Part shown: positions 1 to 28,988 of the stretch, piece after piece
Numbering within the stretch: position 1 is the first letter of the stretch
How the letters are laid out: every line of letters begins with the position of its first letter
Assembly (NCBI GenBank): GCA_964360965.1
Contig: CAYHYM010000002.1
Coordinates: forward strand, 40,412 to 72,411
Length of the DNA stretch: 32,000 nucleotides
Reading direction: 5' to 3'
Origin: an uncultured Gammaproteobacteria bacterium
GTDB lineage: Bacteria > Patescibacteriota > Microgenomatia > Daviesbacterales > UBA10151
Position numbers and translations under genes: made by a program
The notes under the pieces: generated by a model
What the model saw: the letters and a program-made list of their open reading frames with translations, nothing else
Told to the model about the DNA's origin: nothing
The model's database searches: none

Positions 1-1832
1 ATACTTCTATTTGGGGATACTACTCAAGATCAAATGGGGGGCTTCTATCCATAGTTTCATACCTGCTATTATATTGGGCCTTTGTTTCAAACATGGATGC
101 GCCCAAGGTCTTAAACACCCTCAAGTTTGGGTTAGTATCAGGACTGATCATCTCTTTATGGGGAATTGCAGAACACTTTGGAGTGTCACCTTCTTGTGTG
201 ATCTTGCGAGGGGAATTCAATGCCTCCTGTTGGATACAGGATGTGCAATCCAGAGTTTTTGCCACTTTAGGCCAGCCCAACTGGCTAGCGGCATACCTTG
301 CCATGTTAATTTTTCCAAGCTTATATTTCTTTTTAACAGCCAAAAACCGTATACTACAAACTACCTACTACCTACTACTAGTTACCTCTTATCTGGCTTT
401 TACTTTTACCTACTCCAGAGGCCCAATTTTGGGGCTGATAACTGGAATGATAGTGTTTCTCATTCTGTCATTCCCGCGTAGGTCATCGACCGTCGGGATG
501 ACAAAAAGGGTACTTATCGTTTTAGCTACATTTTTTCTTATCAATCTCCTCTTTGGCTCTGCCTTAACCAACTTTAGACTGGTCTCCAAATTTGCCCCCC
601 CACCCAGACCGGCTATTTCACTACCTACTCCAGCCTCAACTGTCACCCAGCTTGAACAAGGCGGAACCGAATCAGGACAAATCCGCTTGATTGTCTGGAA
701 AGGGGCTTTGGAGATCTTCAAACATTTCCCAATTTTTGGTTCAGGTGTGGAAACCTTTGCCATATCCTACTTCCAGTTCCGGCCACAGGCTCATAATTTG
801 GTCTCAGAATGGGATTTTTTATATAACAAGGCCCACAATGAGTTTTTAAATTATTTAGCCAATACCGGACTGGTGGGACTGGGGACATATTTGATAATTA
901 TTATAACTTTTATAATAATTATACTAAAGCGCAAAGGAACCGACCATTTACTACTTTTATCCCTCCTTGCCAGCTATTTAAGCTACCATGTGACCAACTT
1001 TTTTGGCTTTTCCGTTGTTGCAACAGCCCTCCTTTTTTACCTATTTCCAGCATTAGCCTTTGTTGCCACAGAATCCACAAAAGCGCTTAAATTGTCAACT
1101 GTCAATTGGATCTACCGTCGTCCCCTTTACACCAAACTTGCCAAAGGCGTGGTGATCTTTTTAACTCTCTATCTTCTATATTTCATTATTAAGCTTTGGT
1201 ATGCGGATAACCTTTTTGCCAAAGGCATGAAAGAATCAGAGACCGGTAATGTGGGATCATCTTATAATTTTTTATTGTCTGCCAGCATTTTAAACAGCAA
1301 CGAGCCATTTTATAGATCTGAGCTGTCATTTGCAGCAGCCTCTGCAGCGCTGTCTCTTTCACCGGGTGAAGCCACGCTTTCGACAAAACTTAAAGATCAG
1401 GCCACTCAAGAATCAGAAAAAGTGCTTAAATCATCCCCCAAAAATGTGTCATTTTGGCGAACTGCCATCAGAACCTATTTTCAACTATCAGCTCTTGATG
1501 AATCATTTTTCCCAAAAACCATGGCAGCCCTTGATCAAACCATCAAGCTGGCTCCCACTGATGCCAAACTGTACTACAACAAAGCCATACTTTTGGGACA
1601 AAAAAATGATAATGAAGATGCCAAAGAAGCTTTAAAAAAAGCCATTGAACTTAAACCAAATTATAGGGAAAGTTACCTTGCTTTAGGGATATTTTACTTT
1701 GATGAAGGAAAGAGTAAAGAGGCTGTTGAGACTATGCAAAAAGTGCTGACTTTAGTGCCGGGTGATGCTGATGCGCTTAATCAGCTTAATGAGTGGGGCA
1801 AGCAAGGAATTGCTACGCAATCAGGGCAATGA
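1..1832 (+). CDS. O-antigen ligase (Wzy_C)-like polytopic membrane protein with C-terminal TPR repeats; 5' partial
   Basis: The track ORF is 93-1832, but the same frame (codons from nt 3) has no stop back to the window edge, so the gene probably starts upstream. It has many hydrophobic segments and a Wzy_C-like stretch (KAHNEFLNYLANTGLVGLG). The C-terminus has TPR-like repeats (LAPTDAKLYYNKAILLGQ, IELKPNYRESYLALGIFYFDEG). Confidence 0.6.
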   Translation, partial: TSIWGYYSRSNGGLLSIVSYLLLYWAFVSNMDAPKVLNTLKFGLVSGLIISLWGIAEHFGVSPSCVILRGEFNASCWIQDVQSRVFATLGQPNWLAAYLAMLIFPSLYFFLTAKNRILQTTYYLLLVTSYLAFTFTYSRGPILGLITGMIVFLILSFPRRSSTVGMTKRVLIVLATFFLINLLFGSALTNFRLVSKFAPPPRPAISLPTPASTVTQLEQGGTESGQIRLIVWKGALEIFKHFPIFGSGVETFAISYFQFRPQAHNLVSEWDFLYNKAHNEFLNYLANTGLVGLGTYLIIIITFIIIILKRKGTDHLLLLSLLASYLSYHVTNFFGFSVVATALLFYLFPALAFVATESTKALKLSTVNWIYRRPLYTKLAKGVVIFLTLYLLYFIIKLWYADNLFAKGMKESETGNVGSSYNFLLSASILNSNEPFYRSELSFAAASAALSLSPGEATLSTKLKDQATQESEKVLKSSPKNVSFWRTAIRTYFQLSALDESFFPKTMAALDQTIKLAPTDAKLYYNKAILLGQKNDNEDAKEALKKAIELKPNYRESYLALGIFYFDEGKSKEAVETMQKVLTLVPGDADALNQLNEWGKQGIATQSGQ

Positions 1833-3509: not shown

Positions 3510-4375
3510 AAAAAATTGTTTATTTCGGTACTCCTGAGTTTAGCGCCTATATCCTGGAAAAACTGCTTCAGTTTTGCCAGACAAAAAAATTCATTGTTCA
3601 GACAGTGGTCACTAGAGCAGATAAACCTGTGGGCAGAGAACAGACTGTGATGCAATCTCCAGTTGCCATGGTGGCCCAAAAATATGGCATTCTTGCTTTA
3701 AAACCACTTAAGCTTGATGAGCAGTTCCTCATTACCAACTACCCACTACTAACTGCTGACCTCTTCATAGTGGCTTCTTATGGCAAAATTATCCCTCAAA
3801 GTTTACTTGATATACCCAGGTTAGGCTCAATTAATGTTCATCCATCTCTTCTACCTAAATATAGGGGGCCAGCACCAATCCTTACCCCCATCTTAAATGG
3901 TGATAAAGAAACTGGAGTAACAATCATGTTAATGGACGCGGAAATGGATCATGGGCCACTTCTTGCTACAAGCAAGATTAGTATATCAGATCAGGATAAT
4001 CATCAGACTCTGACTACAAAACTTGCTCAGGGGTCTGCCCCACTTTTAATTGAAACTTTGGTTAAATTTGTTGGGGGAAGGATAAAACCCAAGAAACAAA
4101 AACACTCTCAGGCCACTTTTACCAAGTTTACCAAAAAAGAAGATAGTTATTTTGATATTAGCAGTCCCCCTGATCCAGAGGTTTTAGAAAGAATGATCAG
4201 GGCATATTATCCCTGGCCAGTTGTTTGGACCCGCTTTCGCCCTTCGGGCTCCAGCGGGCAAGCCCGCATCGTTAAATTCCTACCCAACAATATGCTGCAA
4301 ATGGAAGGCAAAAAGCCAATATCTTTCAAAGACTTCCTAAACGGCTACCCAGATTTTCCCTTTAAAAGTATTTAA
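3506..4375 (+). CDS. fmt: methionyl-tRNA formyltransferase
   Basis: ATGA overlap with def (classic def-fmt pair). It has an N-terminal formyltransferase fold and the SINVHPSLLPKYRGPAPI motif. A GC-rich patch encodes FRPSGSSGQAR near the C-terminus. Confidence 0.9.
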   Translation: MKKIVYFGTPEFSAYILEKLLQFCQTKKFIVQTVVTRADKPVGREQTVMQSPVAMVAQKYGILALKPLKLDEQFLITNYPLLTADLFIVASYGKIIPQSLLDIPRLGSINVHPSLLPKYRGPAPILTPILNGDKETGVTIMLMDAEMDHGPLLATSKISISDQDNHQTLTTKLAQGSAPLLIETLVKFVGGRIKPKKQKHSQATFTKFTKKEDSYFDISSPPDPEVLERMIRAYYPWPVVWTRFRPSGSSGQARIVKFLPNNMLQMEGKKPISFKDFLNGYPDFPFKSI

Positions 4376-4542: not shown

Positions 4543-6361
4543 GATCACCATAACGAGCGTAAATATGACCTCTATGTCCAATTGCTTCCACCAGACAGTT
4601 GTTACCACCCAAAGGATTGTAAACTATTCTAAAATCACCTACTCTATCAACTAATCTTTTACCACCGGACCACTCAATCATTTTAGGTCGAACTTGACCT
4701 AAGGCAAACATCCTGATATGCTCACTCATTTTATCAACATCTTTTGGCCTGGGATGTCCCCCCATTAGTTCAGTCAGTGAGAATCTGGAAGAATTTATAA
4801 CATGATATTTAGGTTCTGGCAACTCTGTTGTATTAACTGGTTTAGGCCCAGCCAAATATTGAGCTATAGGAGTGAACACTTTACTCACCTTATGATGCTC
4901 CCTCTTTGGAAATGGTAACCTAATAGGCTCTTGCCAAACAGCTTCTTGATCTACTTGAGCAGGTTGAACTTCTGCTTGTTCCACTCTGCGATAATCAGAC
5001 AATCTGATTGGTTCCCGATTGGGATGCATTTTTCTGGCTTCTTCTAATATGGGAGGCAAGATATCGGAAAATACTGCTTTGATAAAATGTTCGTGATCTA
5101 CTACAAGTTTGGCTGGCATTCCATAAAATTTACCATTCTGACCAATTTCTAAAGTAAGATGAGTTTCATCATCAGCAAAATGCAAAATAAGGACAAGAGT
5201 TTGTTTGTTTTGGCAAGTCAAAGTTATATTAGTTACAACATGACCTTCCGGCATTTTAAAATTTAGTTGTCTGTGAGGTGAACGCATCACATCAGAATAT
5301 AAATCCTTAAAATAGAAATCTATCAATCTATCAATTAAATTATCCGAATTATTATAAAGACCTTCAAGTTCTGTATCTGTCAGCTTATTTTTACCATAAA
5401 ATTGAGCAAATTGATCTAGAGCCCGACCATCCGTTTTTTCATCATAATGTTGGTATTTTTCTAAATTAGCAGGTAAAGTTTTTTCTCTATATGCCTCTTT
5501 GGCCCCCATCTCCATTGTTTCTAATATCCCGCTGTTTCTCCAGAAGAATGGGGAAAAGGAAGTTTCTACCCTGGTTTGAAAAAGCTTGATGGCAGATGAA
5601 GGTGTAATGCCAAGCCTTCCTGGCATGTATATGCCCAAAGCCAGTGGCAATCCTGGCTCGGTGTAGGCTAAAGTTTTACGAAAGGAGAACTCATCCTTAA
5701 GACCCATATCAAAGTTAACCATTAAATCTTTATAGTAGTCAAAGTAAGCGACCAGCCTATTATGCAAAGGATGTAAGGAGGGGAAAACTAAATTTTTCTG
5801 CTCGGGCCTGGCAAATTCTTGTGTTGCCAAATAGATCATGGCCTGGAGCATAACCGGAGATCTTCCAGCATGAAACATCCGATTTATTCTTCTGATACCT
5901 TCTGTGGGAAGGGGCAGGGACATTTGCTCTATATCAAAAAAAGAAGTTCCTTCAGAAGTTATTAAACCCAAAAAATTACTGCCACCTAATTCTTGAGAAT
6001 AAAAATCCTGCTCTTTGAATCTTTTGATTGCTGATTGGGGAAGAGTAACTAAACCTTTGTTTTCTGTTTGAGCCCGCTCCAAAAATATGGACAGTCCTCT
6101 TCTAACTTCCAGCCAGCGGCTTATAAAAGGTTTACCCCTATAAATAACTTTAGTGGGTTGGTGATCTTGTTCGTCAACAATCTGATTCCATTCATCTATA
6201 GTTTCACCTAATAAATTATAATGTCTATTGTATTGCCCAGCTAAAGCCTGTGCTGAAGATGAATTTGATGACCTATTTTTGCGTCTGTCGGCACGGTTAC
6301 CTAGCCCAACTTGAGGCTGGGTTTCTTGTTGGCCAGGTTGTATTTCCCTTCTGTCAAACAT
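4532..6361 (-). CDS. large uncharacterised protein with a C-terminal RelE/ParE-superfamily toxin-like domain
   Basis: Long uninterrupted ORF. The track starts it at a TTG at 6376; the first ATG is at 6361, 4 nt after the rpmB stop. The last ~92 aa (nt 4532-4810) read KYHVINSS...RVGDFRIVYNPLGGNNCLVEAIGHRGHIYARY, matching the RelE/ParE signature (RxGDYRIxY ... GHRxxxY). I recognise nothing in the N-terminal ~520 aa. Confidence 0.7.
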   Translation of the reverse strand: MFDRREIQPGQQETQPQVGLGNRADRRKNRSSNSSSAQALAGQYNRHYNLLGETIDEWNQIVDEQDHQPTKVIYRGKPFISRWLEVRRGLSIFLERAQTENKGLVTLPQSAIKRFKEQDFYSQELGGSNFLGLITSEGTSFFDIEQMSLPLPTEGIRRINRMFHAGRSPVMLQAMIYLATQEFARPEQKNLVFPSLHPLHNRLVAYFDYYKDLMVNFDMGLKDEFSFRKTLAYTEPGLPLALGIYMPGRLGITPSSAIKLFQTRVETSFSPFFWRNSGILETMEMGAKEAYREKTLPANLEKYQHYDEKTDGRALDQFAQFYGKNKLTDTELEGLYNNSDNLIDRLIDFYFKDLYSDVMRSPHRQLNFKMPEGHVVTNITLTCQNKQTLVLILHFADDETHLTLEIGQNGKFYGMPAKLVVDHEHFIKAVFSDILPPILEEARKMHPNREPIRLSDYRRVEQAEVQPAQVDQEAVWQEPIRLPFPKREHHKVSKVFTPIAQYLAGPKPVNTTELPEPKYHVINSSRFSLTELMGGHPRPKDVDKMSEHIRMFALGQVRPKMIEWSGGKRLVDRVGDFRIVYNPLGGNNCLVEAIGHRGHIYARYGDLKV

Positions 6362-7778: not shown

Positions 7779-7813
7779 CTGGATTTACTTAAGACTGAAG
7801 ACTTAATACAAAA

Positions 7814-8170
7814 ATGGCATTCAGATTTAGGAATTTTCCGATTTATGAGGATATACGTTCGTTCATTAAAGATATCTATCAATTGGCTAATAAGCTACCA
7901 AAACAGGAACAATTTGAACTAGCTTCTCAATTAAGGCGCGCAGCTACCTCTATATTACTTAATCTAGCAGAAGGTTCTATGAAAAGATCTGATGCGGAGT
8001 TTAATCGTTTTCTAATGATCTCAGTGGGTTCAGTAAGCGAAATTGTAGCTATTTTAGACGTTTGTTTTGACCTGGATTATATTAGTGCTCCAACACATCA
8101 ACAATTTATGCTAAAATGTGAATCTATTGCTAAAAGACTCTATGGTTTTAGTAGAAGATTAAAATCTTAA
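7814..8170 (+). CDS. four-helix-bundle protein (23S rRNA intervening-sequence protein family)
   Basis: 118 aa with the family hallmarks FELASQLRRAATSILLNLAEGSMKRSDAEFNRFLMISVGSVSEI. It sits between tRNA-Thr and rpmG and is flanked by TTACTTAAG-like motifs. Confidence 0.85.
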   Translation: MAFRFRNFPIYEDIRSFIKDIYQLANKLPKQEQFELASQLRRAATSILLNLAEGSMKRSDAEFNRFLMISVGSVSEIVAILDVCFDLDYISAPTHQQFMLKCESIAKRLYGFSRRLKS

Positions 8171-8203
8171 GTCTTTAGTGTTATGTATTAAGTATTTTGT
8201 AAT

Positions 8204-8377
8204 ATGGCTAAAAAGGGAAATAGACAATTAATATCTTTTCAATGTTCTGAATGTAAAAACAGGAATTATACCTCATCAAAAAACACTATCAATAGCAAAG
8301 ATCGTCTTACTTTGAACAAATTTTGTAAACATTGCAGAAAGCATACAGAGCACCAAGAGGTCAAAATAGGCAAATAA
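8204..8377 (+). CDS. rpmG: 50S ribosomal protein L33
   Basis: Not in the ORF track (57 aa). The translation is MAKKGNRQLISFQCSECKNRNYTSSKNTINSKDRLTLNKFCKHCRKHTEHQEVKIGK. This shows the bL33 pattern, with the two CxxC pairs, RNY and KHT.H.E.K. Confidence 0.85.
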   Translation: MAKKGNRQLISFQCSECKNRNYTSSKNTINSKDRLTLNKFCKHCRKHTEHQEVKIGK

Positions 8378-8455
8378 ACTAAATTTTTTCCTCTTAAAAT
8401 TTTAACCCCATATTTGACAAATGAGTTCGAACCATATATGATGGTTGTGAAACCC

Positions 8456-9115
8456 ATGCCCTATTCCATAGATACTAAAGAAAAAGCAATATCCCTTCGA
8501 AAACAGGGATACTCCATAAAAGAAGTTGCAGCACTACTCAATATAGCACAAAGCACATCTTCTTTATGGTTAAGGGAGATAATACTTTCACCTCAAGCAC
8601 AAGATCGCCTCAGAGATAGGAAAATTCTAGGGCAATATAAAGCTATTGAAACTCATAGAAAAAAGAGGTTATCTGTAATAAATGGATTCCATAAAATAGC
8701 TCTGGATGAATTATCAAAGGTTAAATTTAATAAAGCTATATATAAACTTTTGTGTGCGCTCTTTTTCTGGACAGAGGGAGGGAGATCAACAGATAGCTAT
8801 GTATATTTTATTAACTCTGATCCTGTTATGGTAAAAACTTTTGTCAAACTTCTTCATCTGTCTTTCCCTATTGAAGAAAGAAAACTGCGTGCTATGGTCC
8901 AAATACACGAGTATCATAACGATGTCGATACCAAGAAATTTTGGTCAGAAATAACACAAATTCCTGTTGGTCAATTCTCTAAAAGTTATTTAAAACCTCA
9001 TACAGGAAAAAGGATTAGAGACGGATACCAAGGAAGTATAAGAATAAGATATTACGATTATAAGATTGCATTAGAACTACGCGCATTCTATAATGTGTTG
9101 GCTCAAATAATATAG
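8456..9115 (+). CDS. HTH protein with a LAGLIDADG-homing-endonuclease-like C-terminal region (putative)
   Basis: The N-terminal HTH is KEKAISLRKQGYSIKEVAALLNIAQSTSSLWL. The C-terminal LFFWTEGGRS...VYFINSDPVMVKTFVKLL pattern resembles degenerate LAGLIDADG-type proteins. The start was chosen downstream of TTGACA (8414-8419) - 17 nt - TATGAT (8437-8442); in-frame ATGs also occur at 8438 and 8441. The stop codon overlaps tRNA-Trp by 2 nt. Confidence 0.45.
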   Translation: MPYSIDTKEKAISLRKQGYSIKEVAALLNIAQSTSSLWLREIILSPQAQDRLRDRKILGQYKAIETHRKKRLSVINGFHKIALDELSKVKFNKAIYKLLCALFFWTEGGRSTDSYVYFINSDPVMVKTFVKLLHLSFPIEERKLRAMVQIHEYHNDVDTKKFWSEITQIPVGQFSKSYLKPHTGKRIRDGYQGSIRIRYYDYKIALELRAFYNVLAQII

Positions 9116-9186
9116 GGGTGTAGCTCAGTTGGTAGAGCACTCGTCTCCAAAACGAGCGGTCGTAGGTTCGACTCCTACCGCCCCTG
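9114..9186 (+). tRNA. tRNA-Trp(CCA)
   Basis: Cloverleaf: AGGGGTG/CGCCCCT acceptor, D arm GCTC-AGTTGGTA-GAGC, anticodon loop CTCCAAA, T arm GTAGG-TTCGACT-CCTAC, discriminator G. It closely resembles classical bacterial tRNA-Trp. Confidence 0.9.
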
Positions 9187-9208
9187 CAAAATCTATCTAT
9201 ACAATGTA

Positions 9209-24230: not shown

Positions 24231-25373
24231 TCAGGATGACAATAACACCTTTAGTGTTTCCTTTGCACATTTTTCCCAGGAAAACCTTTTGATGTTTTCA
24301 AAACCTGCTTTTACACTTTGCACTCTCCACTTTGCACTTTGCACTTTTTCCATCCCCCTCACTATATCATCAATGGAATATGGATTCACCAAAATGGCAG
24401 CCTTGCCAGCTACGTTTCGGTTTACACGAACGTAGCCAGCCACCTCCGGCATACTTGACACATCCGATGTGATCACTGGACATCCGCAAGCCTGAGCCTC
24501 CAAAATAGGTAATCCAAACCCTTCAAAAAGAGAGGGAAAGAGCAGAGCTTTGGCTCCGGAGTATAGGGCCGGTAAATCTTTATCAGCTACATAACCCAGG
24601 AATTTAACCTTATCTTCTATACCTAGCTTCTTAGGAAGCTGATAAACCTCATCACTCATCCAACCTTTGGAACCAGCAATTACAAGTTTAGAAGCGGCGA
24701 AGTCACGAGCGACTATTGAAAAAGCCTTAATTATCCTCTCCAGATTCTTCCTGGGCTGTACAGTCCCCACAAATAGAAAGTACTTTCCCTCCTCTATATC
24801 AAAGTATTTCAATGTATTTCTAAGTATTTCTTCTTTTACTGATCTAAACAACTCCTTATCATACCCCTCATATACCACTCTGATTTTATCCTCTTCTATT
24901 CCTATTCTTTCCACCAGATCCCTTTTAGTAGCTTTTGACACGGCAATAATCTTGCTTGCCCCTCTTAACTGATATCTTTGCATGATGGAAAGATATAGTT
25001 TTTGTTTTAACTGGTGCATGGAAGGAAGAAACTCTGACCCCAAATCATGGACAGTCACCACCGTCTTTATCCCTGGTGTTCTGATTAAAGGCAGCGTATG
25101 CGCAGGCACATACAGCACATTAAGATCATCTTTAAAGGTCTGTACAGCCAGTCCCCCTTGTGTCCAAAGCCTTGACCATTTAATTGTCACAAACTTGAAA
25201 TTCTTTGGCCATCCATTATTGTCATTCCGAGCTTGCGAATTCGGTCTGATATAAACTATATAAGTATTTTTGTCATCAATTTTTGCCAAAGCTTTAAGCA
25301 GTTGATAAGAATAATTTTCTGTCCCGGTCTTTTTTTTATCAAATGCCCTGGAGCCATCAAAACCAATTATCAT
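24231..25373 (-). CDS. GT4-family glycosyltransferase (GT-B fold)
   Basis: FVGTVQPRKN and the EX7E-type motif PSLFEGFGLPILEAQACGCPVITS. The gene contains an in-frame palindromic insertion and a heptamer repeat tract. Confidence 0.85.
   Translation of the reverse strand: MIIGFDGSRAFDKKKTGTENYSYQLLKALAKIDDKNTYIVYIRPNSQARNDNNGWPKNFKFVTIKWSRLWTQGGLAVQTFKDDLNVLYVPAHTLPLIRTPGIKTVVTVHDLGSEFLPSMHQLKQKLYLSIMQRYQLRGASKIIAVSKATKRDLVERIGIEEDKIRVVYEGYDKELFRSVKEEILRNTLKYFDIEEGKYFLFVGTVQPRKNLERIIKAFSIVARDFAASKLVIAGSKGWMSDEVYQLPKKLGIEDKVKFLGYVADKDLPALYSGAKALLFPSLFEGFGLPILEAQACGCPVITSDVSSMPEVAGYVRVNRNVAGKAAILVNPYSIDDIVRGMEKVQSAKWRVQSVKAGFENIKRFSWEKCAKETLKVLLSS
24314..24348. repeat. five tandem heptamers (CACTTTG CACTCTC CACTTTG CACTTTG CACTTTT) inside the GT4 gene
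   Basis: Read directly from the sequence. The unit length is not a multiple of three. The tract encodes EKVQSAKWRVQSVK on the minus strand. Confidence 0.8.
24405..24440. repeat. 24-nt hairpin element (GTTTACA loop) flanked by 6-nt direct repeats GCCAGC, in frame inside the GT4 gene
   Basis: GCCAGC-TACGTTTCGGTTTACACGAACGTA-GCCAGC. It encodes AG-YVRVNRNV-AG. The element is related to the hairpin at 7434-7456. Confidence 0.65.
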
Positions 25374-26469: not shown

Positions 26470-27639
26470 TCACTTAAGGTTTATCCCATACAGGTTGGGG
26501 GAAGAAGCAGTTGGTGTGGGAAAAGAGCTAACCAGGATCAGCCTGGAAGAATCCGGCCAAACATAGACATAATTATCATCAAATTTACCGGCGAATAAAA
26601 CTGCCTTATTGCTGCTGTCAAAATCAATAATTGAAACTTGATCACTCTCCACCAGCACAATATGCCTTGAATCAGGCAGCCAAAAATGAAGCTTGGCTGA
26701 AGGTACATCATATTGTTTATTATCCTCCAGGTCGTAAACTTTAAAGTTAGAAATTAAAACTTCACCCTCTTTTTCTTTGTCGGTAAGAGCATTTTTTCTA
26801 TAGATAAATTTAGTCTCATCAGGGGCCCATTTCAAAACCGCTGAATTTGAAGCAAGGTGTTTGGCCGCAAAATCCTTGATATTTAATACCCTGGCCTGGT
26901 TTTGAGCATTCTTATCATCTGCCCAGGATTTTAAAGTGGACGTCAGTACAGGGGTAATATCCCTGGGATCCTGGTTGAGCCTATTTTCATCTAAAATATA
27001 ATGGTTGCTACCTACTTTTGCCATAATCTGTTTTGAATCAGGAGAAAAATCTAAAAAAGCGTTGGTATAATCAATACTCAAACTTTGAGCAATCTGATGC
27101 GGCTCTGAGGAACGGGCAAAAGCAATGGGGCGATCAGAGACCATAGTCCAAACCCAAACTCCCGCTTTTTTGTTACCTATTGCTTGAGTAGAACTTAGGG
27201 GAACTACATATGCCAATTTTTCTCCATCAGGAGAAAGTATCGGGTTTTTTACTCCGCTGAAGGTTAAGGGGTAAATGGTGGGCTGGGCCGGGAAAAGAAT
27301 CAATTTCAAATCGCTCACCAGTCCCTCTTTAACCTCAACTGATCTTTCCCAGGGGATGAAACCCTCTTTTACCACTCTCACCTGATAAGTTTTAGGAGAT
27401 AAACCAGGGATGGTGGCATTGGTGGCTGTGGTTAAATGTCCGTCAATAAAGACAGAGGCTGCATCAGGAGAAGATTTGATAGTGATAATTCCGGTGCCGA
27501 CGATTCTTTTTTCTTTAGGAGAAAAAGTATATCCTTTGGCCAAAAAAATAGCCAATCCTGAGGCTGCCACAATAATAACCAGTGTCAAAATGGTGAATAA
27601 AAAACGTTTTGACATAATATTCTTAAGATATCCTAACAT
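26470..27639 (-). CDS. PEGA-domain membrane-anchored protein with a beta-propeller-like C-terminal region
   Basis: An N-terminal TM helix is followed by PEGA-like IKSSPDAASVFIDGHLTTATNATIPGLSPKTYQVRVVKEGFIPWERSVEV. The repetitive beta-rich C-terminus (SPDGEKLAY, FSPDSKQI, WAPDETKF) resembles TolB-like blades. Confidence 0.55.
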   Translation of the reverse strand: MLGYLKNIMSKRFLFTILTLVIIVAASGLAIFLAKGYTFSPKEKRIVGTGIITIKSSPDAASVFIDGHLTTATNATIPGLSPKTYQVRVVKEGFIPWERSVEVKEGLVSDLKLILFPAQPTIYPLTFSGVKNPILSPDGEKLAYVVPLSSTQAIGNKKAGVWVWTMVSDRPIAFARSSEPHQIAQSLSIDYTNAFLDFSPDSKQIMAKVGSNHYILDENRLNQDPRDITPVLTSTLKSWADDKNAQNQARVLNIKDFAAKHLASNSAVLKWAPDETKFIYRKNALTDKEKEGEVLISNFKVYDLEDNKQYDVPSAKLHFWLPDSRHIVLVESDQVSIIDFDSSNKAVLFAGKFDDNYVYVWPDSSRLILVSSFPTPTASSPNLYGINLK

Positions 27640-27669
27640 AACTTAATTATCTTATCCAGTGGAATTTTG

Positions 27670-27742
27670 CGGCCCTGGAGGGAATTGCACCCCCGACCAA
27701 CCGCTTAGGACGCGGCTGCTCTGTCTGCTGAGCTACAGGGCC
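27670..27742 (-). tRNA. tRNA-Arg(CCU), non-canonical D and T loops
   Basis: Cloverleaf on the minus strand: GGCCCTG/CAGGGCC acceptor, D arm GCTC-AGCAGACA-GAGC with no GG in the D loop, anticodon arm GCCGC-GTCCTAA-GCGGT, T arm GGGGG-TGCAATT-CCCTC with G at position 55. Confidence 0.65.
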
Positions 27743-27747
27743 AAGGT

Positions 27748-27783
27748 TTACTTAAGTTAGTTAAGATACTTAAGTTACCTAAG
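27748..27783. repeat. 9-mer array 1: TTACTTAAG TTAGTTAAG ATACTTAAG TTACCTAAG
   Basis: Four tandem 9-bp units between tRNA-Arg and the 3' end of the four-helix-bundle suffix gene. The array overlaps that gene's last codons and stop. Confidence 0.85.
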
Positions 27784-28362
27784 TTTAACGCGTAGTCTCT
27801 TTTGAAACAAGTTTTCAGAATATCCACCCTCCTTAATAAAAGTTTCTTCTGCTTTGTTAATTTGCTTATTTAACAAATAGGTTGCTAAATGACATAAAGT
27901 TAAGAGAAAATTAGCAGCTTCCTCTGGATCATCTGGCAACTTGGGCTTTTCTTTAAATTCACCTAAGTTACTTAAGTTACCTAAGTCACTTAAGCGATAA
28001 GCAAGCTGCCTAAATTCCTTCACCTTAGGATCATCCTTGGGCCAGATTTTTAAATCTCTTTGTCTTAAAAAATCTTCATAATCTTTAATTAACTCTTCCA
28101 AAGAGGATTCAGCTACACCTAAAAGTCTAATCTCCCCTTTTTTAGAGGTTCTACCAAATCCTACCGCTTCTACTATATTTTGCTTTCCGGACCTGGCAGA
28201 TTGATTCATCTGATCAGCAGTCCTGTAATCTGGCTTGCTGTCTTTTAAGTTACTTAAGACACTTAAGTTACCTAAGATATACTTCTTAATAAAAATTACA
28301 GTTAAATCATGTATAATTTCGCTATAACGATAGGTCAGGAGGTACTTGTGCTTTGGTAGCAT
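27775..28362 (-). CDS. four-helix-bundle suffix-domain protein (23S rRNA IVS protein-related)
   Basis: RTADQMNQSARSGKQNIVEAVGFGRTSKKGEIRLLGVAESSLEELIKDYEDFLRQRDLKIWPKDD matches the family core. It has two in-frame L-x-x tripeptide repeat insertions (LGNLSVLSNL and LSDLGNLSNLGE). Confidence 0.8.
   Translation of the reverse strand: MLPKHKYLLTYRYSEIIHDLTVIFIKKYILGNLSVLSNLKDSKPDYRTADQMNQSARSGKQNIVEAVGFGRTSKKGEIRLLGVAESSLEELIKDYEDFLRQRDLKIWPKDDPKVKEFRQLAYRLSDLGNLSNLGEFKEKPKLPDDPEEAANFLLTLCHLATYLLNKQINKAEETFIKEGGYSENLFQKRLRVKLR
27959..27994. repeat. 9-mer array 2 (intragenic): TCACCTAAG TTACTTAAG TTACCTAAG TCACTTAAG
   Basis: In frame within the gene; encodes LSDLGNLSNLGE on the minus strand. Confidence 0.85.
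28241..28276. repeat. 9-mer array 3 (intragenic): TCTTTTAAG TTACTTAAG ACACTTAAG TTACCTAAG
   Basis: In frame within the gene; encodes LGNLSVLSNLK on the minus strand. Confidence 0.85.
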
Positions 28363-28364
28363 AT

Positions 28365-28400
28365 TTACTTAAGTTACCTAAGATACTTAAGTTACTTATA
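28365..28400. repeat. 9-mer array 4: TTACTTAAG TTACCTAAG ATACTTAAG TTACTTATA
   Basis: It lies between the gene's start codon (28362) and tRNA-Pro (28409). Confidence 0.85.
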
Positions 28401-28408
28401 TCTTATCA

Positions 28409-28480
28409 CGGGGACTAGGTCATCGGTAGACCGCTCGGTTCGGGTCCGAGAGGCAGGGAGTTCAATTCTCCCGTCCCCGA
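28409..28480 (+). tRNA. tRNA-Pro(CGG)
   Basis: Cloverleaf: CGGGGAC/GTCCCCG acceptor, D arm GGTC-ATCGGTA-GACC, anticodon arm CTCGG-TTCGGGT-CCGAG, T arm GGGAG-TTCAATT-CTCCC, discriminator A. Confidence 0.9.
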
Positions 28481-28605
28481 CTAGTATGTTGTTTACATTC
28501 AAATATCTGATCACCTATGGACCTTACTTACCTTTGAGGATCATCTGTAGATTTACGAGCATAGAGGACATACTTTAATTTCGAAAAATCCAGCTCCTCA
28601 TCCAT
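28481..28605 (-). pseudogene. serine recombinase N-terminal relic (in-frame TAA, truncated at the tRNA-Pro 3' end)
   Basis: The minus strand from the ATG at 28605 reads MDEELDFSKLKYVLYARKSTDDPQR*VRSIGDQIFECKQHTS. YARKST....RQ..SI.DQ is the catalytic N-terminal signature of serine recombinases. The TAA at 28528-28530 sits where CAA (Gln) is expected. The frame runs directly into tRNA-Pro. Confidence 0.55.
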
Positions 28606-28631
28606 GAGGGAATTATACCAAAGCTATTATT

Positions 28632-28988
28632 TTATAAATTAGTTACCACTTCGCCAAGCTTAGCAATACCTCTTTTTCCTAAATCAATAGTTACCCCTTG
28701 CATCTCTAATCCTGACATTCCAACAGTTTTAACATTGGGTGAATGACGACCAATAGCTGCTACTAAAGCACGTCCATCATAACCACTTGTATCGTTAGGG
28801 TCTAAATTACCATCAATCGTAGCTACTTGTACCCCTAATTCCTCGAATTGTTCTATAGCTTTGACTGCATCATCAAAAGTTTCTGCCTTTAAAACTACAC
28901 TATGACCTGCAGATTCTAGTATGCGCCTTATGTTTTCTTGCCAATCCTTATTATCTTCTGCAACAAATACTCTTGCTCTTTCTGGCAT
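28632..28988 (-). CDS. stand-alone response-regulator receiver (CheY-like) domain protein
   Basis: 118 aa with VFVAEDN (acidic pair), ATIDGNL (putative phospho-acceptor Asp59), VGMSG (Ser/Thr position) and LGKRG (Lys position). AAGGAG lies 8 nt upstream of the ATG. There is no output domain. Confidence 0.55.
   Translation of the reverse strand: MPERARVFVAEDNKDWQENIRRILESAGHSVVLKAETFDDAVKAIEQFEELGVQVATIDGNLDPNDTSGYDGRALVAAIGRHSPNVKTVGMSGLEMQGVTIDLGKRGIAKLGEVVTNL

Follow-up and report, generated by a model that had tools for sequence, protein, structure and literature searches.

Four tandem arrays of a 9-nt unit in and around a four-helix-bundle gene between two tRNA genes

Why does the same short DNA unit recur four times in and around one small gene, both outside and inside its coding sequence? 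The question is raised by a window of 32,000 nucleotides (the whole stretch of DNA that was analysed, from contig CAYHYM010000002.1, placed by GTDB in the Patescibacteriota), in which the gene for a 195-aa protein lies between the genes for tRNA-Arg and tRNA-Pro, with an upstream (U) and a downstream (D) array at its ends and two further arrays in its loop-coding parts.

Tandem Repeats Finder reports four arrays of period 9 (27748-27785, 27964-27994, 28245-28276 and 28365-28398; 3.4-4.2 copies each), and a period-specific detector found exactly four period-9 arrays in the 32 kb window, all at the 195-aa gene, and none at periods 8, 11 or 12. A sequence-only reading had described four blocks of exactly four 9-bp units; the four arrays are there, but the first unit of its third array (loop 1) and the last unit of its fourth (U) are degenerate. 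Also, CCTAAG, which had been taken for a palindrome, is not palindromic, and the repeat unit is more aptly given as a core, CTTAAG or CTTAGG, with a spacer of 3 nt, which amounts to the 9-bp dyad AAGT-N-ACTT. The coordinates agree with the description of the outer arrays as bracketing the gene and filling the gaps to the tRNA genes (32 nt on the tRNA-Arg side, 46 nt on the tRNA-Pro side), and the inner arrays are indeed in frame and encode L-[SG]-x repeats, whereas the D array overlaps the end of the gene and supplies the stop codon with its first unit (AAA CTT AGG TAA), in a frame that differs from that of the internal arrays. Exact TTACYTAAG occurs 9 times in the window versus 0.96 expected, with 8 of the 9 copies inside the four arrays, and the two-unit pattern CTTARGNNNCTTARG (at most one mismatch) occurs 24 times versus 1.3 expected. 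As 22 of these 24 matches lie in the arrays, the objection that the 9-mer might be a genome-wide microsatellite fails within the window. A CRISPR array is not a suitable description either, since the gaps between the arrays (175, 246 and 88 nt) are conserved coding sequence and PADLOC gave no match for the 195-aa protein; nor is a contingency-locus microsatellite subject to phase variation, since the 9-nt period keeps the frame, though copy number varies by whole units.

Table 1. Features of the window discussed in the text (positions within the 32,000-nt window).
Feature	Position	Strand	Remarks
195-aa four-helix-bundle suffix-domain gene	27775..28362	-	ORF; sole gene of the cassette; TIGR04258; PF05635/S23p fold (predicted)
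Upstream (U) array	28365..28400	-	4 units, non-coding; ends 3 nt ahead of ATG
Loop-1 array	28241..28276	-	in frame (TTA GGT AAC and similar); residues ~30-41 (LGNLSVLSNLKD), between helices 1 and 2
Loop-2 array	27959..27994	-	in frame; residues ~123-135 (LSDLGNLSNLG), end of helix 4 and following loop
Downstream (D) array	27748..27783	-	4 units; abuts tRNA-Arg
tRNA-Arg(CCT)	27669..27742	-	co-oriented with and directly downstream of the cassette
tRNA-Pro(CGG)	28409..28481	+	divergent from the cassette; other border of the insertion site
Possible fifth, degenerate array	27622..27657	-	CTTAAG, CCTAAC, CTTAAT, CTTATC at spacings 10, 10, 9; weak call
Canonical 118-aa four-helix-bundle gene	7814..8170	+	TIGR02436/PF05635, profile matches; between tRNA-Thr and rpmG
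Upstream heptamer array of canonical gene	7786..7809	+	ACTTAAG ACTGAAG ACTTAAT
Downstream heptamer array of canonical gene	8164..8205	+	TCTTAAG TCTTTAG TGTTATG TATTAAG TATTTTG TAATATG; runs into rpmG start codon

The encoded protein scores 57.9 bits against TIGR04258 (cut-off 40), which places it in that family, and 31.3 bits against TIGR02436 (cut-off 24). Its score against Pfam PF05635 (28.8 bits) stays under the gathering score (33.8), as the domain is interrupted by the loops. An AlphaFold2 model (pLDDT 84.8) has six helices, and a Foldseek search with it retrieved 2RLD (target-normalised TM-score 0.82, probability 1.0) and 2GSC (probability 1.0), so that the protein is predicted to adopt the four-helix-bundle fold of the solved S23p structures; together with the profile scores, this backs the earlier assignment of the gene to the S23p/IVS/Avd-related fold. 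Helices 8-29 and 46-69 of the model bound loop 1, in which pLDDT falls below 50 at residues 38-41. The protein is basic (pI 9.2), and Pfam and TIGR profile searches found no transposase domain in it. PF05635/S23p proteins are very common among bacterial genomes; to our knowledge, those outside Avd, the accessory protein of diversity-generating retroelements, are without known function, and we know of no demonstration of nucleic-acid binding in the family other than for Avd. A classification of IVS proteins as HEPN was dropped, the HEPN survey (PMC3710099) making no mention of IVS, S23 or Avd.

The architecture recurs far beyond the window. Period-9 arrays in 80 homologous loci of many phyla lie at four fixed positions, namely next to the start, within each of the loops 1 and 2, and over the stop codon, and these positions are the same from Patescibacteria to Planctomycetota and Bacteroidota. 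A looser detector applied to the gene zones of the 80 loci found 124 period-9 arrays versus 0-3 at each of the periods 7, 8, 10 and 11, with at least one period-9 array in 63 loci and none in 17, and a strict detector found 111 period-9 arrays in 465 kb versus 2, 2, 1 and 5 at periods 8, 10, 11 and 12. The U position holds 45 arrays (80 loci and the window's own), the loop-2 array starts 198 nt past the SGKQNIVE motif across loci (IQR 193-202), and D arrays begin, at the median, 4 nt ahead of where the stop codon ends. Array size is ~4 units at every position, with whole-unit differences (4 versus 5) between close relatives; their U arrays have conserved cores and 4 or 5 copies, and generally the 6-nt core is conserved and the 3-nt spacers are free to drift. 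The unit itself is lineage-specific (CTTAAGNNN, TATAGGACC, AATTGGACN, TGAGGGNNN and others): units agree at 6.8 of 9 positions within a locus versus 5.4 of 9 between loci, unit type tracks protein subfamily, and two paralogs from one metagenome-assembled genome (L057 and L078) have a unit each of their own. Units that are 8/9 self-complementary make up 31%, versus 3.4% of random 9-mers, and within an array the central base is A in some units and T in others. The protein is most conserved in its SGKQNIVEG motif and its suffix domain, neither of which varies by unit type.

Codon usage separates a constraint on nucleic acid from one on protein. In 23 loci, leucine is encoded by TTA in 80% of cases inside the coding repeats versus 23% elsewhere in the same genes, and serine by AGY in 97% versus 37%; these synonymous codons stay locked at 45-75% protein identity. 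Tripeptides at equivalent sites are unrelated by lineage (LSN, SYK/TYR, TNW, PHI, SHE) and match the non-coding units. It had been considered that distant orthologs might carry the same LxN repeats encoded by unrelated nucleotides; none does. The layout is recurrent over phyla with a lineage-specific repeat, and the arrays are therefore maintained as DNA or RNA sequence and not for the sake of the protein, as the sequence-only reading had proposed. The codon lock inside the arrays also rules out an explanation by the protein alone. Such an explanation would hold that a hydrophobic residue is required in the loops at each third position (LxxLxx/YxxYxx), that the DNA repeat is a recent codon duplication and that the flanking arrays are decayed coding extensions. 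It could draw on array-less homologs, which keep xSY xTY xxY in loop 2, and on protein P0068, the N-terminal extension of which translates the upstream array. We consider it highly improbable. It is already largely refuted by the codon test, and besides, the U array of the window has TAA stops in the frame of the gene, the D array is read in another frame than the internal arrays, different lineages have unrelated tripeptides at the same sites in agreement with their non-coding units, the loops are of low model confidence (AlphaFold2), and canonical four-helix-bundle genes have period-7 arrays, which cannot be coding.

Comparison of orthologous tRNA-Pro/tRNA-Arg loci bears on how the gene came to lie there. 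About 30 of these spacers are empty, with 41-77 nt, back-to-back promoters, no array and no scar, and other orthologous spacers contain a PaaX_M/Cas2-like gene or an HTH gene instead; for an alternative occupant of ~212 aa, the label "LAGLIDADG-like" had no Pfam support, and only an HTH domain was found. As the spacers are mostly empty or hold other small genes, the gene and its arrays are, as had been suggested, a repeat-delimited insertion cassette. Adjacency to tRNA genes does not hold as a defining feature, as ~45 of 60 loci have no nearby tRNA and synteny is lineage-specific. The immediate neighbours in the window are the tRNA genes, a response regulator and a PEGA-domain protein, and relatives have a scrambled gene order on either side of the cassette. 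In empty sites tRNA-Arg usually has a -10 box (TAAAAT/TAGAAT), in the place of which the D array is found in the window; a scan for sigma-70 promoters and terminators gave nothing from tRNA-Pro to the gene, and no terminator. The inserted cassette would have displaced the tRNA-Arg promoter, in which case tRNA-Arg would probably be made by read-through and released by processing.

Folding gave, for the window's own locus, a minimum-free-energy structure (z = -3.8) in which U pairs with D and both inner arrays form hairpins; the long-range U:D stem is missing from the centroid structure. Across loci, U/D duplexes with z < -2 were obtained in 21 of 69, and the loop-2 zone had z < -2 versus shuffled sequence in 27 of 78 loci, compared to 5-8 for each of the control zones (74-80 loci each). 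Sense and antisense strands folded equally well, with no RNA-specific signal and thus nothing to tell RNA-level from DNA-level action. In CTTAAG-type arrays many spacers (AAA, AGA, CAA) would put 3x3 internal loops between AU-rich 6-bp helices, and therefore stems of this type would be weak. The mutual orientation of U and D, as judged from spacer or central base, is direct for 8 loci, inverted for 4 and ambiguous for another 9, and clearly asymmetric units are inverted between the two ends in L047, L051 and L058.

The explanation that we favour, tentatively and as a possibility, is that of a selfish cassette similar to the intervening sequences (IVS) of 23S rRNA, in which the arrays would be cis-acting pairing and recognition modules, possibly read by the cassette's own protein. 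The cassette would be a compact insertion with one basic four-helix-bundle gene (TIGR04258, S23p/Avd fold), the ends and the two internal loop-coding sites of which would be marked by ~4 copies of a lineage-specific 9-nt unit. Through dyad symmetry and mutual complementarity the arrays would act as cis elements: U and D may pair and thereby close the ORF in a stem, and each internal array may fold back on itself. This would be the plan of the 23S rRNA IVS with an S23p ORF, which RNase III excises at the terminal stem. The fixed array positions, the codon lock, the lineage-specific and often dyad-symmetric unit, the folding results and the insertion status all count in favour of this explanation.

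The IVS of Coxiella, Leptospira and Salmonella resemble the cassette in having an ORF of the same superfamily (S23p/PF05635), an insertion within a stable-RNA transcription unit and the sporadic distribution expected for a selfish element; they have complementary terminal sequences around the ORF, which the cassette may share, its U and D being paired in the minimum-free-energy fold and unpaired in the centroid. In Coxiella, the terminal stem of the IVS is cut by RNase III, and short tandem repeats of strain-variable copy number are likewise found at the ORF start, namely 2-3 perfect GACAGAT heptamers and one degenerate copy upstream of S23p (PMC4990558). These heptamers were the only related item in a literature search on TIGR04258/PF05635/S23p and 9-nt repeats, in which no prior description was found. 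In contrast to IVS, the cassette lies outside rRNA (between tRNA genes here, between protein-coding genes in most other loci), its protein carries long loops and, at the C-terminus, a suffix domain, its ends are formed by 9-mers in tandem and not by a plain inverted repeat, and two more arrays are in frame inside its gene. It is not an IVS proper, which is inserted in an rRNA helix; Rfam found only the two tRNAs in 27400-28800. Against the IVS-like explanation also stand that a stem for RNase III requires no periodicity and no core specific to a lineage, that U/D orientations are mixed, that both strands fold equally, that the centroid lacks U:D pairing, that 17 of 80 loci are array-less and that no mobility enzyme is present.

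The canonical four-helix-bundle gene of the window speaks for the IVS-like explanation, as its inverted heptamer arrays may be counted as a family trait. Degenerate 9-mers had been described beside this gene; the repeats there are heptamers of period 7. The downstream array, which Tandem Repeats Finder gives as period 21, and the upstream array are mutually inverted and can form a duplex of at least 12 bp, and 2 of the 6 loose 7-mer arrays in the 32 kb window flank this gene. Orthologs of the canonical gene (L220-L230) have the same inverted-heptamer arrangement, in which the unit changes on both sides together. A cross-locus matrix of U-by-D duplexes for this gene gave no usable signal, as the zones took in GC-rich tRNA sequence, and viral contigs yielded no close relative of it. 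The canonical protein matches the Avd model NF033474 weakly (28.6 bits, cut-off 80; canonical gene only). Avd proteins share with the cassette protein the four-helix-bundle fold at a distant sequence relation, and both are basic proteins that act, in the case of the cassette protein putatively, with nucleic acids. Since the cut-off of the Avd model is not reached by the canonical gene, and since neither a reverse transcriptase nor a template/variable repeat pair was seen among the immediate neighbours of the cassette gene, the locus is not a diversity-generating retroelement.

Strict period, conserved 6-nt core with free 3-nt spacers, ~4 units everywhere and the match of unit to protein subfamily, including the two paralogs of one metagenome-assembled genome, suggest that the cassette's own protein, as an oligomer, may read the repeats. 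The same features count for arrays that act as double-stranded DNA, like operators or transposon ends, to which the basic protein (as dimers or a ring) would bind cooperatively at 9-bp dyads, thereby autoregulating its gene and marking the ends, with solo arrays elsewhere as a small regulon or as landing sites. MetJ on tandem 8-bp met boxes and the omega repressor on 7-bp heptads are analogues. The A/T flips of the central base are as expected of a symmetric site, and the pI of the protein, the equal folding of both strands and the solo arrays 5' of atpH, atpA, epimerase, PEGA, infB and mreB genes agree with it. However, the protein has no recognised DNA-binding domain, its most conserved parts, the SGKQNIVEG motif and the suffix domain, show no change by unit type, operators within a gene's own coding loops are unusual, and the inversion of truly asymmetric units at the two ends fits base pairing too, so that we hold this alternative to be somewhat unlikely. 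As in iteron and operator arrays, the repeats are short, abut one another, share a conserved core and stand beside the gene; like met boxes, the omega heptads of pSM19035 and the parC iterons of ParR, their units are often palindromic, of few copies, direct or inverted, and located beside the gene of the presumed binding protein. Those systems differ in that their proteins are of the ribbon-helix-helix type with proven DNA binding, which for the cassette protein is inferred, and in that the cassette arrays are also found at the stop codon and inside coding loops.

Solo arrays occur in related loci at ~0.07 per kb versus 1.1 per kb at the gene, and sit exactly in short intergenic spacers. At the atpH, atpA, epimerase and PEGA genes they extend into the start codon, and upstream of infB and mreB they end at least ~30 nt before it. 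The possible fifth array of the window lies in the stretch from tRNA-Arg to what is probably the real start of the PEGA-domain gene, and at the same place L147, L164 and L190 have intact solo CTTAAG arrays that run into the PEGA ATG. A scan of viral contigs for CTTAAGNNN x4 gave 11 phage loci, two of them with the array beside terminase genes, and no tie to the cassette gene; matches of a viral-contig scan for ATAGGWCNN x4 were rejected as cassette evidence, being mostly collagen-like G-P-I coding repeats with no four-helix-bundle-suffix homolog near any of them. The latter scan also cautions that "ATAGGACC" arrays within long ORFs can be ordinary coding repeats. REP/REPIN-RAYT systems are similar in their short (~36 bp) genome-specific palindromic elements, which flank one particular gene and have solo copies in intergenic spacers, also within operons, and in the co-variation of repeat and gene. 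They differ in that the cassette gene encodes a four-helix bundle and not an IS200/IS605-type Y1 transposase, and in that the cassette elements are internally periodic (9-nt unit), also lie in frame inside coding sequence and appear low in genome-wide copy number, with none away from the cassette in the window; as its gene has no transposase domain, the cassette is no REP/REPIN-RAYT.

The solo arrays could also be footprints of gene deletion between flanking direct repeats, if the arrays were by-products, that is, palindromic microsatellites prone to slippage, 9-bp target duplications that have built up, or scars of recombination, carried along by the cassette and homogenised through gene conversion. 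U and D of the window are indeed direct repeats of 86% identity, close relatives differ in copy number by whole units, solo arrays fit exactly into short spacers, gene order in relatives is scrambled around the cassette, and period-7 arrays are also common in these genomes; moreover, 9-bp symmetric units resemble target sites of elements that make 9-bp duplications. Nevertheless, we judge by-products to be clearly unlikely: the four positions are the same from Patescibacteria to Planctomycetota and Bacteroidota, array size is tightly held, core retention with drifting spacers is contrary to what would follow from recent duplication, synonymous codons are locked despite 45-75% protein identity, empty sites are scar-free and no transposase is present.

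A broader view, which we regard as rather doubtful at present, is that TIGR04258 proteins would be repeat-reading nucleic-acid-binding oligomers, the specificity of which co-evolves with a 9-nt unit written four times in and around their own gene. Protein and arrays would then form a widespread, previously unrecognised class of transposase-less selfish cassettes that have insertion hot spots in common with homing-endonuclease-like genes and leave behind solo arrays at other places, and the same logic, with 7-nt units, might apply to the whole S23p/PF05635 family, including the rRNA IVS. The architecture, the nucleotide-level constraint, the insertion status and the pairing potential come directly out of the computation; RNA processing, protein binding and a role of the cassette in mobility or maintenance are inferred. 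The arrays are a clear case of a nucleic-acid signal retained within protein-coding loops, which would mislead gene callers, repeat finders and protein-repeat analyses alike, and in Patescibacteria several kinds of small insertion genes share the spacers beside tRNA genes as hot spots. The origin and movement of the rRNA IVS that carry S23p have been a question for more than 30 years, and a gene-tied, co-varying cis element that is visible from sequence offers a concrete handle on the PF05635/S23p proteins, as it predicts a possible protein target, possible processing sites and the end marks of the cassette.

Around and within a four-helix-bundle (4HB) gene located between tRNA-Arg and tRNA-Pro, the sequence-only reading had described four short arrays of a 9-bp unit at 27748-28400, and the same four were recovered by Tandem Repeats Finder and by a strict period-specific detector (at least 4 consecutive units, at least 5 invariant columns). 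At period 9, those four were the only arrays that the strict detector reported over 32 kb; periods 8, 11 and 12 gave none. The exact 9-mer TTACYTAAG occurs 9 times in the window (0.96 expected) and the two-unit pattern CTTARGNNNCTTARG 24 times (1.3 expected), 22 of them inside the four arrays. The coding-strand unit consists of a CTTAAG or CTTAGG core and a 3-nt spacer, and forms a 9-bp dyad, AAGT-N-ACTT. tRNA-Arg(cct) is found 32 nt past the stop codon of the gene and the divergent tRNA-Pro(cgg) 46 nt ahead of its start. The two inner arrays are indeed in frame, as had been proposed, and are read as TTA-RGT-NNC to give L-[SG]-x; the upstream flanking array (U) holds TAA stops in the frame of the gene, whose own stop codon comes from the first unit of the downstream array (D), read as CTT AGG TAA.

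Positions of arrays and associated genes in the window
Feature	Position	Strand	Size or copies	Remark
Heptamer array	7786-7809			flanks canonical 4HB gene; inverted relative to 8164-8205
Canonical 4HB gene	7814-8170		118 aa	
Heptamer array	8164-8205			flanks canonical 4HB gene; inverted relative to 7786-7809
HTH protein gene	8414-9115	+	233 aa	adjoins tRNA-Trp 9114-9187
Degenerate CTTAAG-like array	27622-27657			cores spaced 10, 10, 9; between tRNA-Arg and PEGA gene
Period-9 array	27748-27785		3.4-4.2 copies (range over the four)	Tandem Repeats Finder
4HB-suffix gene	27775-28362	minus	195 aa	
Period-9 array	27964-27994		3.4-4.2 copies (range over the four)	Tandem Repeats Finder
Period-9 array	28245-28276		3.4-4.2 copies (range over the four)	Tandem Repeats Finder
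Period-9 array	28365-28398		3.4-4.2 copies (range over the four)	Tandem Repeats Finder

The 195-aa product, a basic protein (pI 9.2), scored 57.9 bits against TIGR04258 (four-helix-bundle suffix domain; cut-off 40) and also matched TIGR02436, and its match to PF05635 was only partial. An AlphaFold2 model (pLDDT 84.8) places helices at residues 8-29, 46-69, 74-101, 112-125, 146-177 and 180-194, and among real structures it best matches 2RLD and 2GSC, both of the S23 family. One inner array corresponds to residues ~30-41, the loop between helices 1 and 2, and the other to residues ~123-135, the end of helix 4 and the following loop; model confidence is lowest at the array-encoded residues. Homologs (3371 hits, Patescibacteria predominant) retain L[SG]x repeats in both loops and differ by indels of whole tripeptides. 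In 23 loci with L[SG]x repeats and protein identity as low as ~45%, codon choice within the repeats departs from that in the rest of the same genes: Leu is TTA in 80 versus 23%, Ser is AGT/AGC in 97 versus 37% and Gly is GGT in 80 versus 32%. At the same two loop sites, distant homologs carry other tripeptides (for example SYK/TYR, TNW/SNL, PHI/PQF or SHE), each of which is the translation of a 9-mer that also flanks that gene in non-coding DNA. Orthologs therefore present the opposite of one peptide encoded by unrelated nucleotides. The protein does not explain the repeats, and a protein-level repeat is hardly credible; selection or spread at the level of the nucleic acid, as postulated earlier, is what the codons and the translated flanking units support.

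We retrieved 80 genomic loci (L-numbers denote such genomic or metagenomic loci) of the 4HB-suffix gene family from Patescibacteria, Planctomycetota, Verrucomicrobiota, Bacteroidota, Ignavibacteriota, Armatimonadota, Methylomirabilota and others. Over 465 kb, the strict detector reported 111 arrays at period 9, as compared to 2, 2, 1 and 5 at periods 8, 10, 11 and 12, and 82 of the 111 were in or beside the gene (~1.1 per kb versus 0.07 per kb in the flanks). A looser detector found 124 period-9 arrays in the gene zones, versus 1, 0, 3 and 3 at periods 7, 8, 10 and 11, with at least one in 63 of the 80 loci. The second inner array (loop 2) starts 198 nt past the SGKQNIVE motif (IQR 193-202), the median start of D lies 4 nt ahead of the stop codon's end (IQR -11 to +6), and the median size is ~4 units at each of the four positions. 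This four-position architecture is conserved across phyla.

The unit itself is lineage-specific, as exemplified by CTTAAGNNN, TATAAGNCN/TATAGGACC, ATGGGACNN, AATTNGNCN, TGAGGGNNN with inverted CCCACANNN, and A-rich GAC or T-rich GTC units. Units agree on average at 6.8 of 9 positions within a locus, at 5.4 between loci and at 4.7 for random 9-mers. Unit type tracks protein subfamily and not host label; in CAZAUT01, a single metagenome-assembled genome, two paralogs have their own units (AATTNGNCN at L057, CTTAAGNNN at L078). Across loci and among close relatives the 3-nt spacer varies and the core is conserved, and 38 of 124 array consensus units are self-complementary at 8 of 9 positions, versus 3.4% of random 9-mers. 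In the AGYKYLLTYQY subfamily (L023, L024, L031, L033), loop 2 contains two adjoining in-frame arrays of opposite orientation, TGAGGGNNN then CCCACANNN, a coding hairpin built from non-palindromic units. On a Chisholmbacteria contig, a LeuRS-like ORF (L012 54-2936) contains six in-frame period-9 arrays whose units (GTACAAGAG, GGGAGATAA, GTAGTNCAA) are not the CTTAAG unit present at the adjoining 4HB-suffix gene.

Arrays also occur away from the gene. Related Patescibacteria have solo CTTAAG arrays that take up short spacers between genes, such as those of atpF/atpH/atpA (L029) or 5' of an epimerase gene (L018) and of the PEGA-domain gene that adjoins tRNA-Arg (L147, L164, L190); most reach the next start codon, frequently in the form ...CTTATG or ...CTTAAGATG, and those 5' of mreB (L018) and infB (L015) stop ~30 nt or more short of it. 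Their orientation was that of the downstream gene in 5 of 5 cases checked. The intact arrays of L147, L164 and L190 occupy the spot of the degenerate array of the window, inside which the annotated PEGA ATG at 27639 probably falls; the gene is likely to start instead with the ATG at 27615-27613 (MSKRF...). In two phage contigs (L084 3216-3273; L091 373-416), terminase genes have CTTAAG-type 9-mer arrays next to them. In the viral-contig scan, ATAGGACC-type arrays in long ORFs may be ordinary collagen-like G-P-I repeats, and ATAGGWCNN arrays (L092-L141, giant-virus metagenome-assembled genomes included) were almost all such coding repeats. Among close relatives, copy number shifts by whole units (4 versus 5). 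It is improbable that the arrays have no function and arose as by-products of slippage or recombination, the solo ones marking past deletions. The strict period, conserved core, fixed size and co-variation of unit and protein argue for recognition.

With the PEGA gene as query, 78 orthologous metagenomic loci were obtained, and their spacers fall into three classes. About 30 tRNA-Pro/tRNA-Arg spacers are empty (41-77 nt): they lack arrays and have conserved promoters placed back to back (reverse complement GGTATAAT; TGnTAAAAT/TAGAAT). About six contain a gene whose product is a winged-HTH plus PaaX_M/Cas2-like protein, and five (L152, L165, L194, L196, L197) one for an HTH protein of ~212 aa. 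Five further loci have the 4HB-suffix gene and CTTAAG arrays ~1.2 kb past the PEGA gene instead, and it lies in the tRNA spacer in the window, L001-L003 and L005; the PEGA/tRNA/cassette neighborhood is kept with order and orientation scrambled. Orthologous spacers vary in the presence of the cassette, and gene and arrays together form an insertion. D abuts tRNA-Arg, both in the window and in the three relatives closest to it, where empty sites carry the -10 box, from which we infer that tRNA-Arg now depends on read-through transcription from the cassette. The ~212-aa protein is homologous to that of the window's HTH gene (BLASTP E = 7e-12), which for this reason seems to be a further small gene of the kind inserted into spacers beside tRNAs; a LAGLIDADG endonuclease was discarded for this ORF, as the resemblance was by eye only and Pfam gives an HTH domain alone. 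The PaaX_M/Cas2-like gene (165-185 aa; L148, L151, L153, L157, L182) is flanked by TGCGATCGTACAA copies, and a homolog at L220 1392-1910 adjoins rpmG and the canonical 4HB gene. Longer "empty" spacers (148-154 nt; L156, L170-L174) contain partial duplicates of tRNA-Pro 3' and tRNA-Arg 5' parts, which suggests past insertion or excision.

Folding of 27743-28408 (minus strand) as RNA gave an MFE of -166.7 kcal/mol (z = -3.8 versus shuffled), in a structure where U:D pairing encloses the ORF and the inner arrays each fold into a ~15-bp hairpin with a 3-nt loop; the long-range U:D stem is missing from the centroid structure. Compared to dinucleotide shuffles, U/D duplexes reached z < -2 in 21 and z < -3 in 11 of 69 loci, and the loop-2 zone out-folded shuffles in 27 of 78 loci, versus 5-8 for each of three control zones of the same genes (74-80 loci each). 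Where units are clearly asymmetric (L047, L051, L058, L045, L072), the flanking arrays are inverted, with stems of roughly 17-40 bp, the longest near-continuous ones in L047 and L058. When orientation was scored from the spacer or the central base, U and D came out as direct repeats at 8 loci and as inverted ones at 4, with 9 loci ambiguous, and sense and antisense strands folded equally well; these results fit RNA structure and DNA symmetry alike. That the arrays are bound as double-stranded DNA, in the manner of operators or transposon ends, we regard as rather unlikely. Inverted ends of asymmetric units and the precedent of 23S rRNA intervening sequences (IVS) argue for pairing.

Beside the canonical 4HB gene (TIGR02436/PF05635), located between tRNA-Thr and rpmG, the repeats previously taken for degenerate 9-mers turned out to be heptamers. 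Only 6 loose 7-mer arrays occur in the 32-kb window, 2 of which flank this gene, the downstream one extending into the rpmG start codon. Its orthologs (L220-L230) always show the order tRNA, 4HB, rpmG and the same inverted-heptamer bracket, with a unit that differs by lineage, both sides changing together (GACTTAA/TTAAGTC, AACTTAA/TTAAGTA, GCTGAAA/TTTCAGC, ATAAACA/GTTTTAT, ACAACTA/TAGTTGT); at an unrelated canonical gene (L066) the arrays are direct, not inverted. The Coxiella IVS carries an ORF of the S23p (PF05635) family, is cleaved by RNase III at its terminal stem and contains, before the ORF, 2-3 perfect GACAGAT heptamers (strain-variable) and one degenerate copy (PMC4990558). Period-7 arrays are also common in Daviesbacteria-like loci (L142-L219; 80 in 436 kb versus 0 at periods 8, 10 and 11), often as inverted pairs and potential hairpins (L147 5145-5177 with 5196-5226; L158 554-583 with 603-633); in L165 such a pair (3965-3998 with 5101-5132) brackets the PEGA gene. 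Heptamers occur within coding genes as well, namely TTTGCAC x5 at 24310-24348 (glycosyltransferase ORF 24231-25373(-)) and TACTACC x4 at 351-380 (ORF 93-1832(+)).

The fold, the IVS association and one instance of heptamers beside an S23p ORF are already known. In the searchable literature, database-entry notes possibly aside, we did not find the four-position period-9 architecture across phyla, nucleotide-level maintenance of period-9 arrays inside coding loops, co-variation of the unit with gene subfamily, the filled/empty tRNA-spacer polymorphism of the cassette or a general inverted-heptamer bracket around canonical members. We tentatively favor an IVS-like selfish cassette whose dyad-symmetric arrays would act in cis as modules for pairing and recognition, and place the finding with IVS-type S23p cassettes. 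Pairing between its ends, together with hairpins inside it, would insulate the cassette or lead to its processing within a stable-RNA transcription unit, and the most likely reader of the periodic unit would be the cassette's own oligomeric protein, a putative binder. Since canonical 4HB loci and the Coxiella IVS both have heptamers, border tandem arrays look like a trait of the whole family, with period 7 in canonical members and, in the suffix subfamily, period 9, which also permits in-frame copies within the gene.
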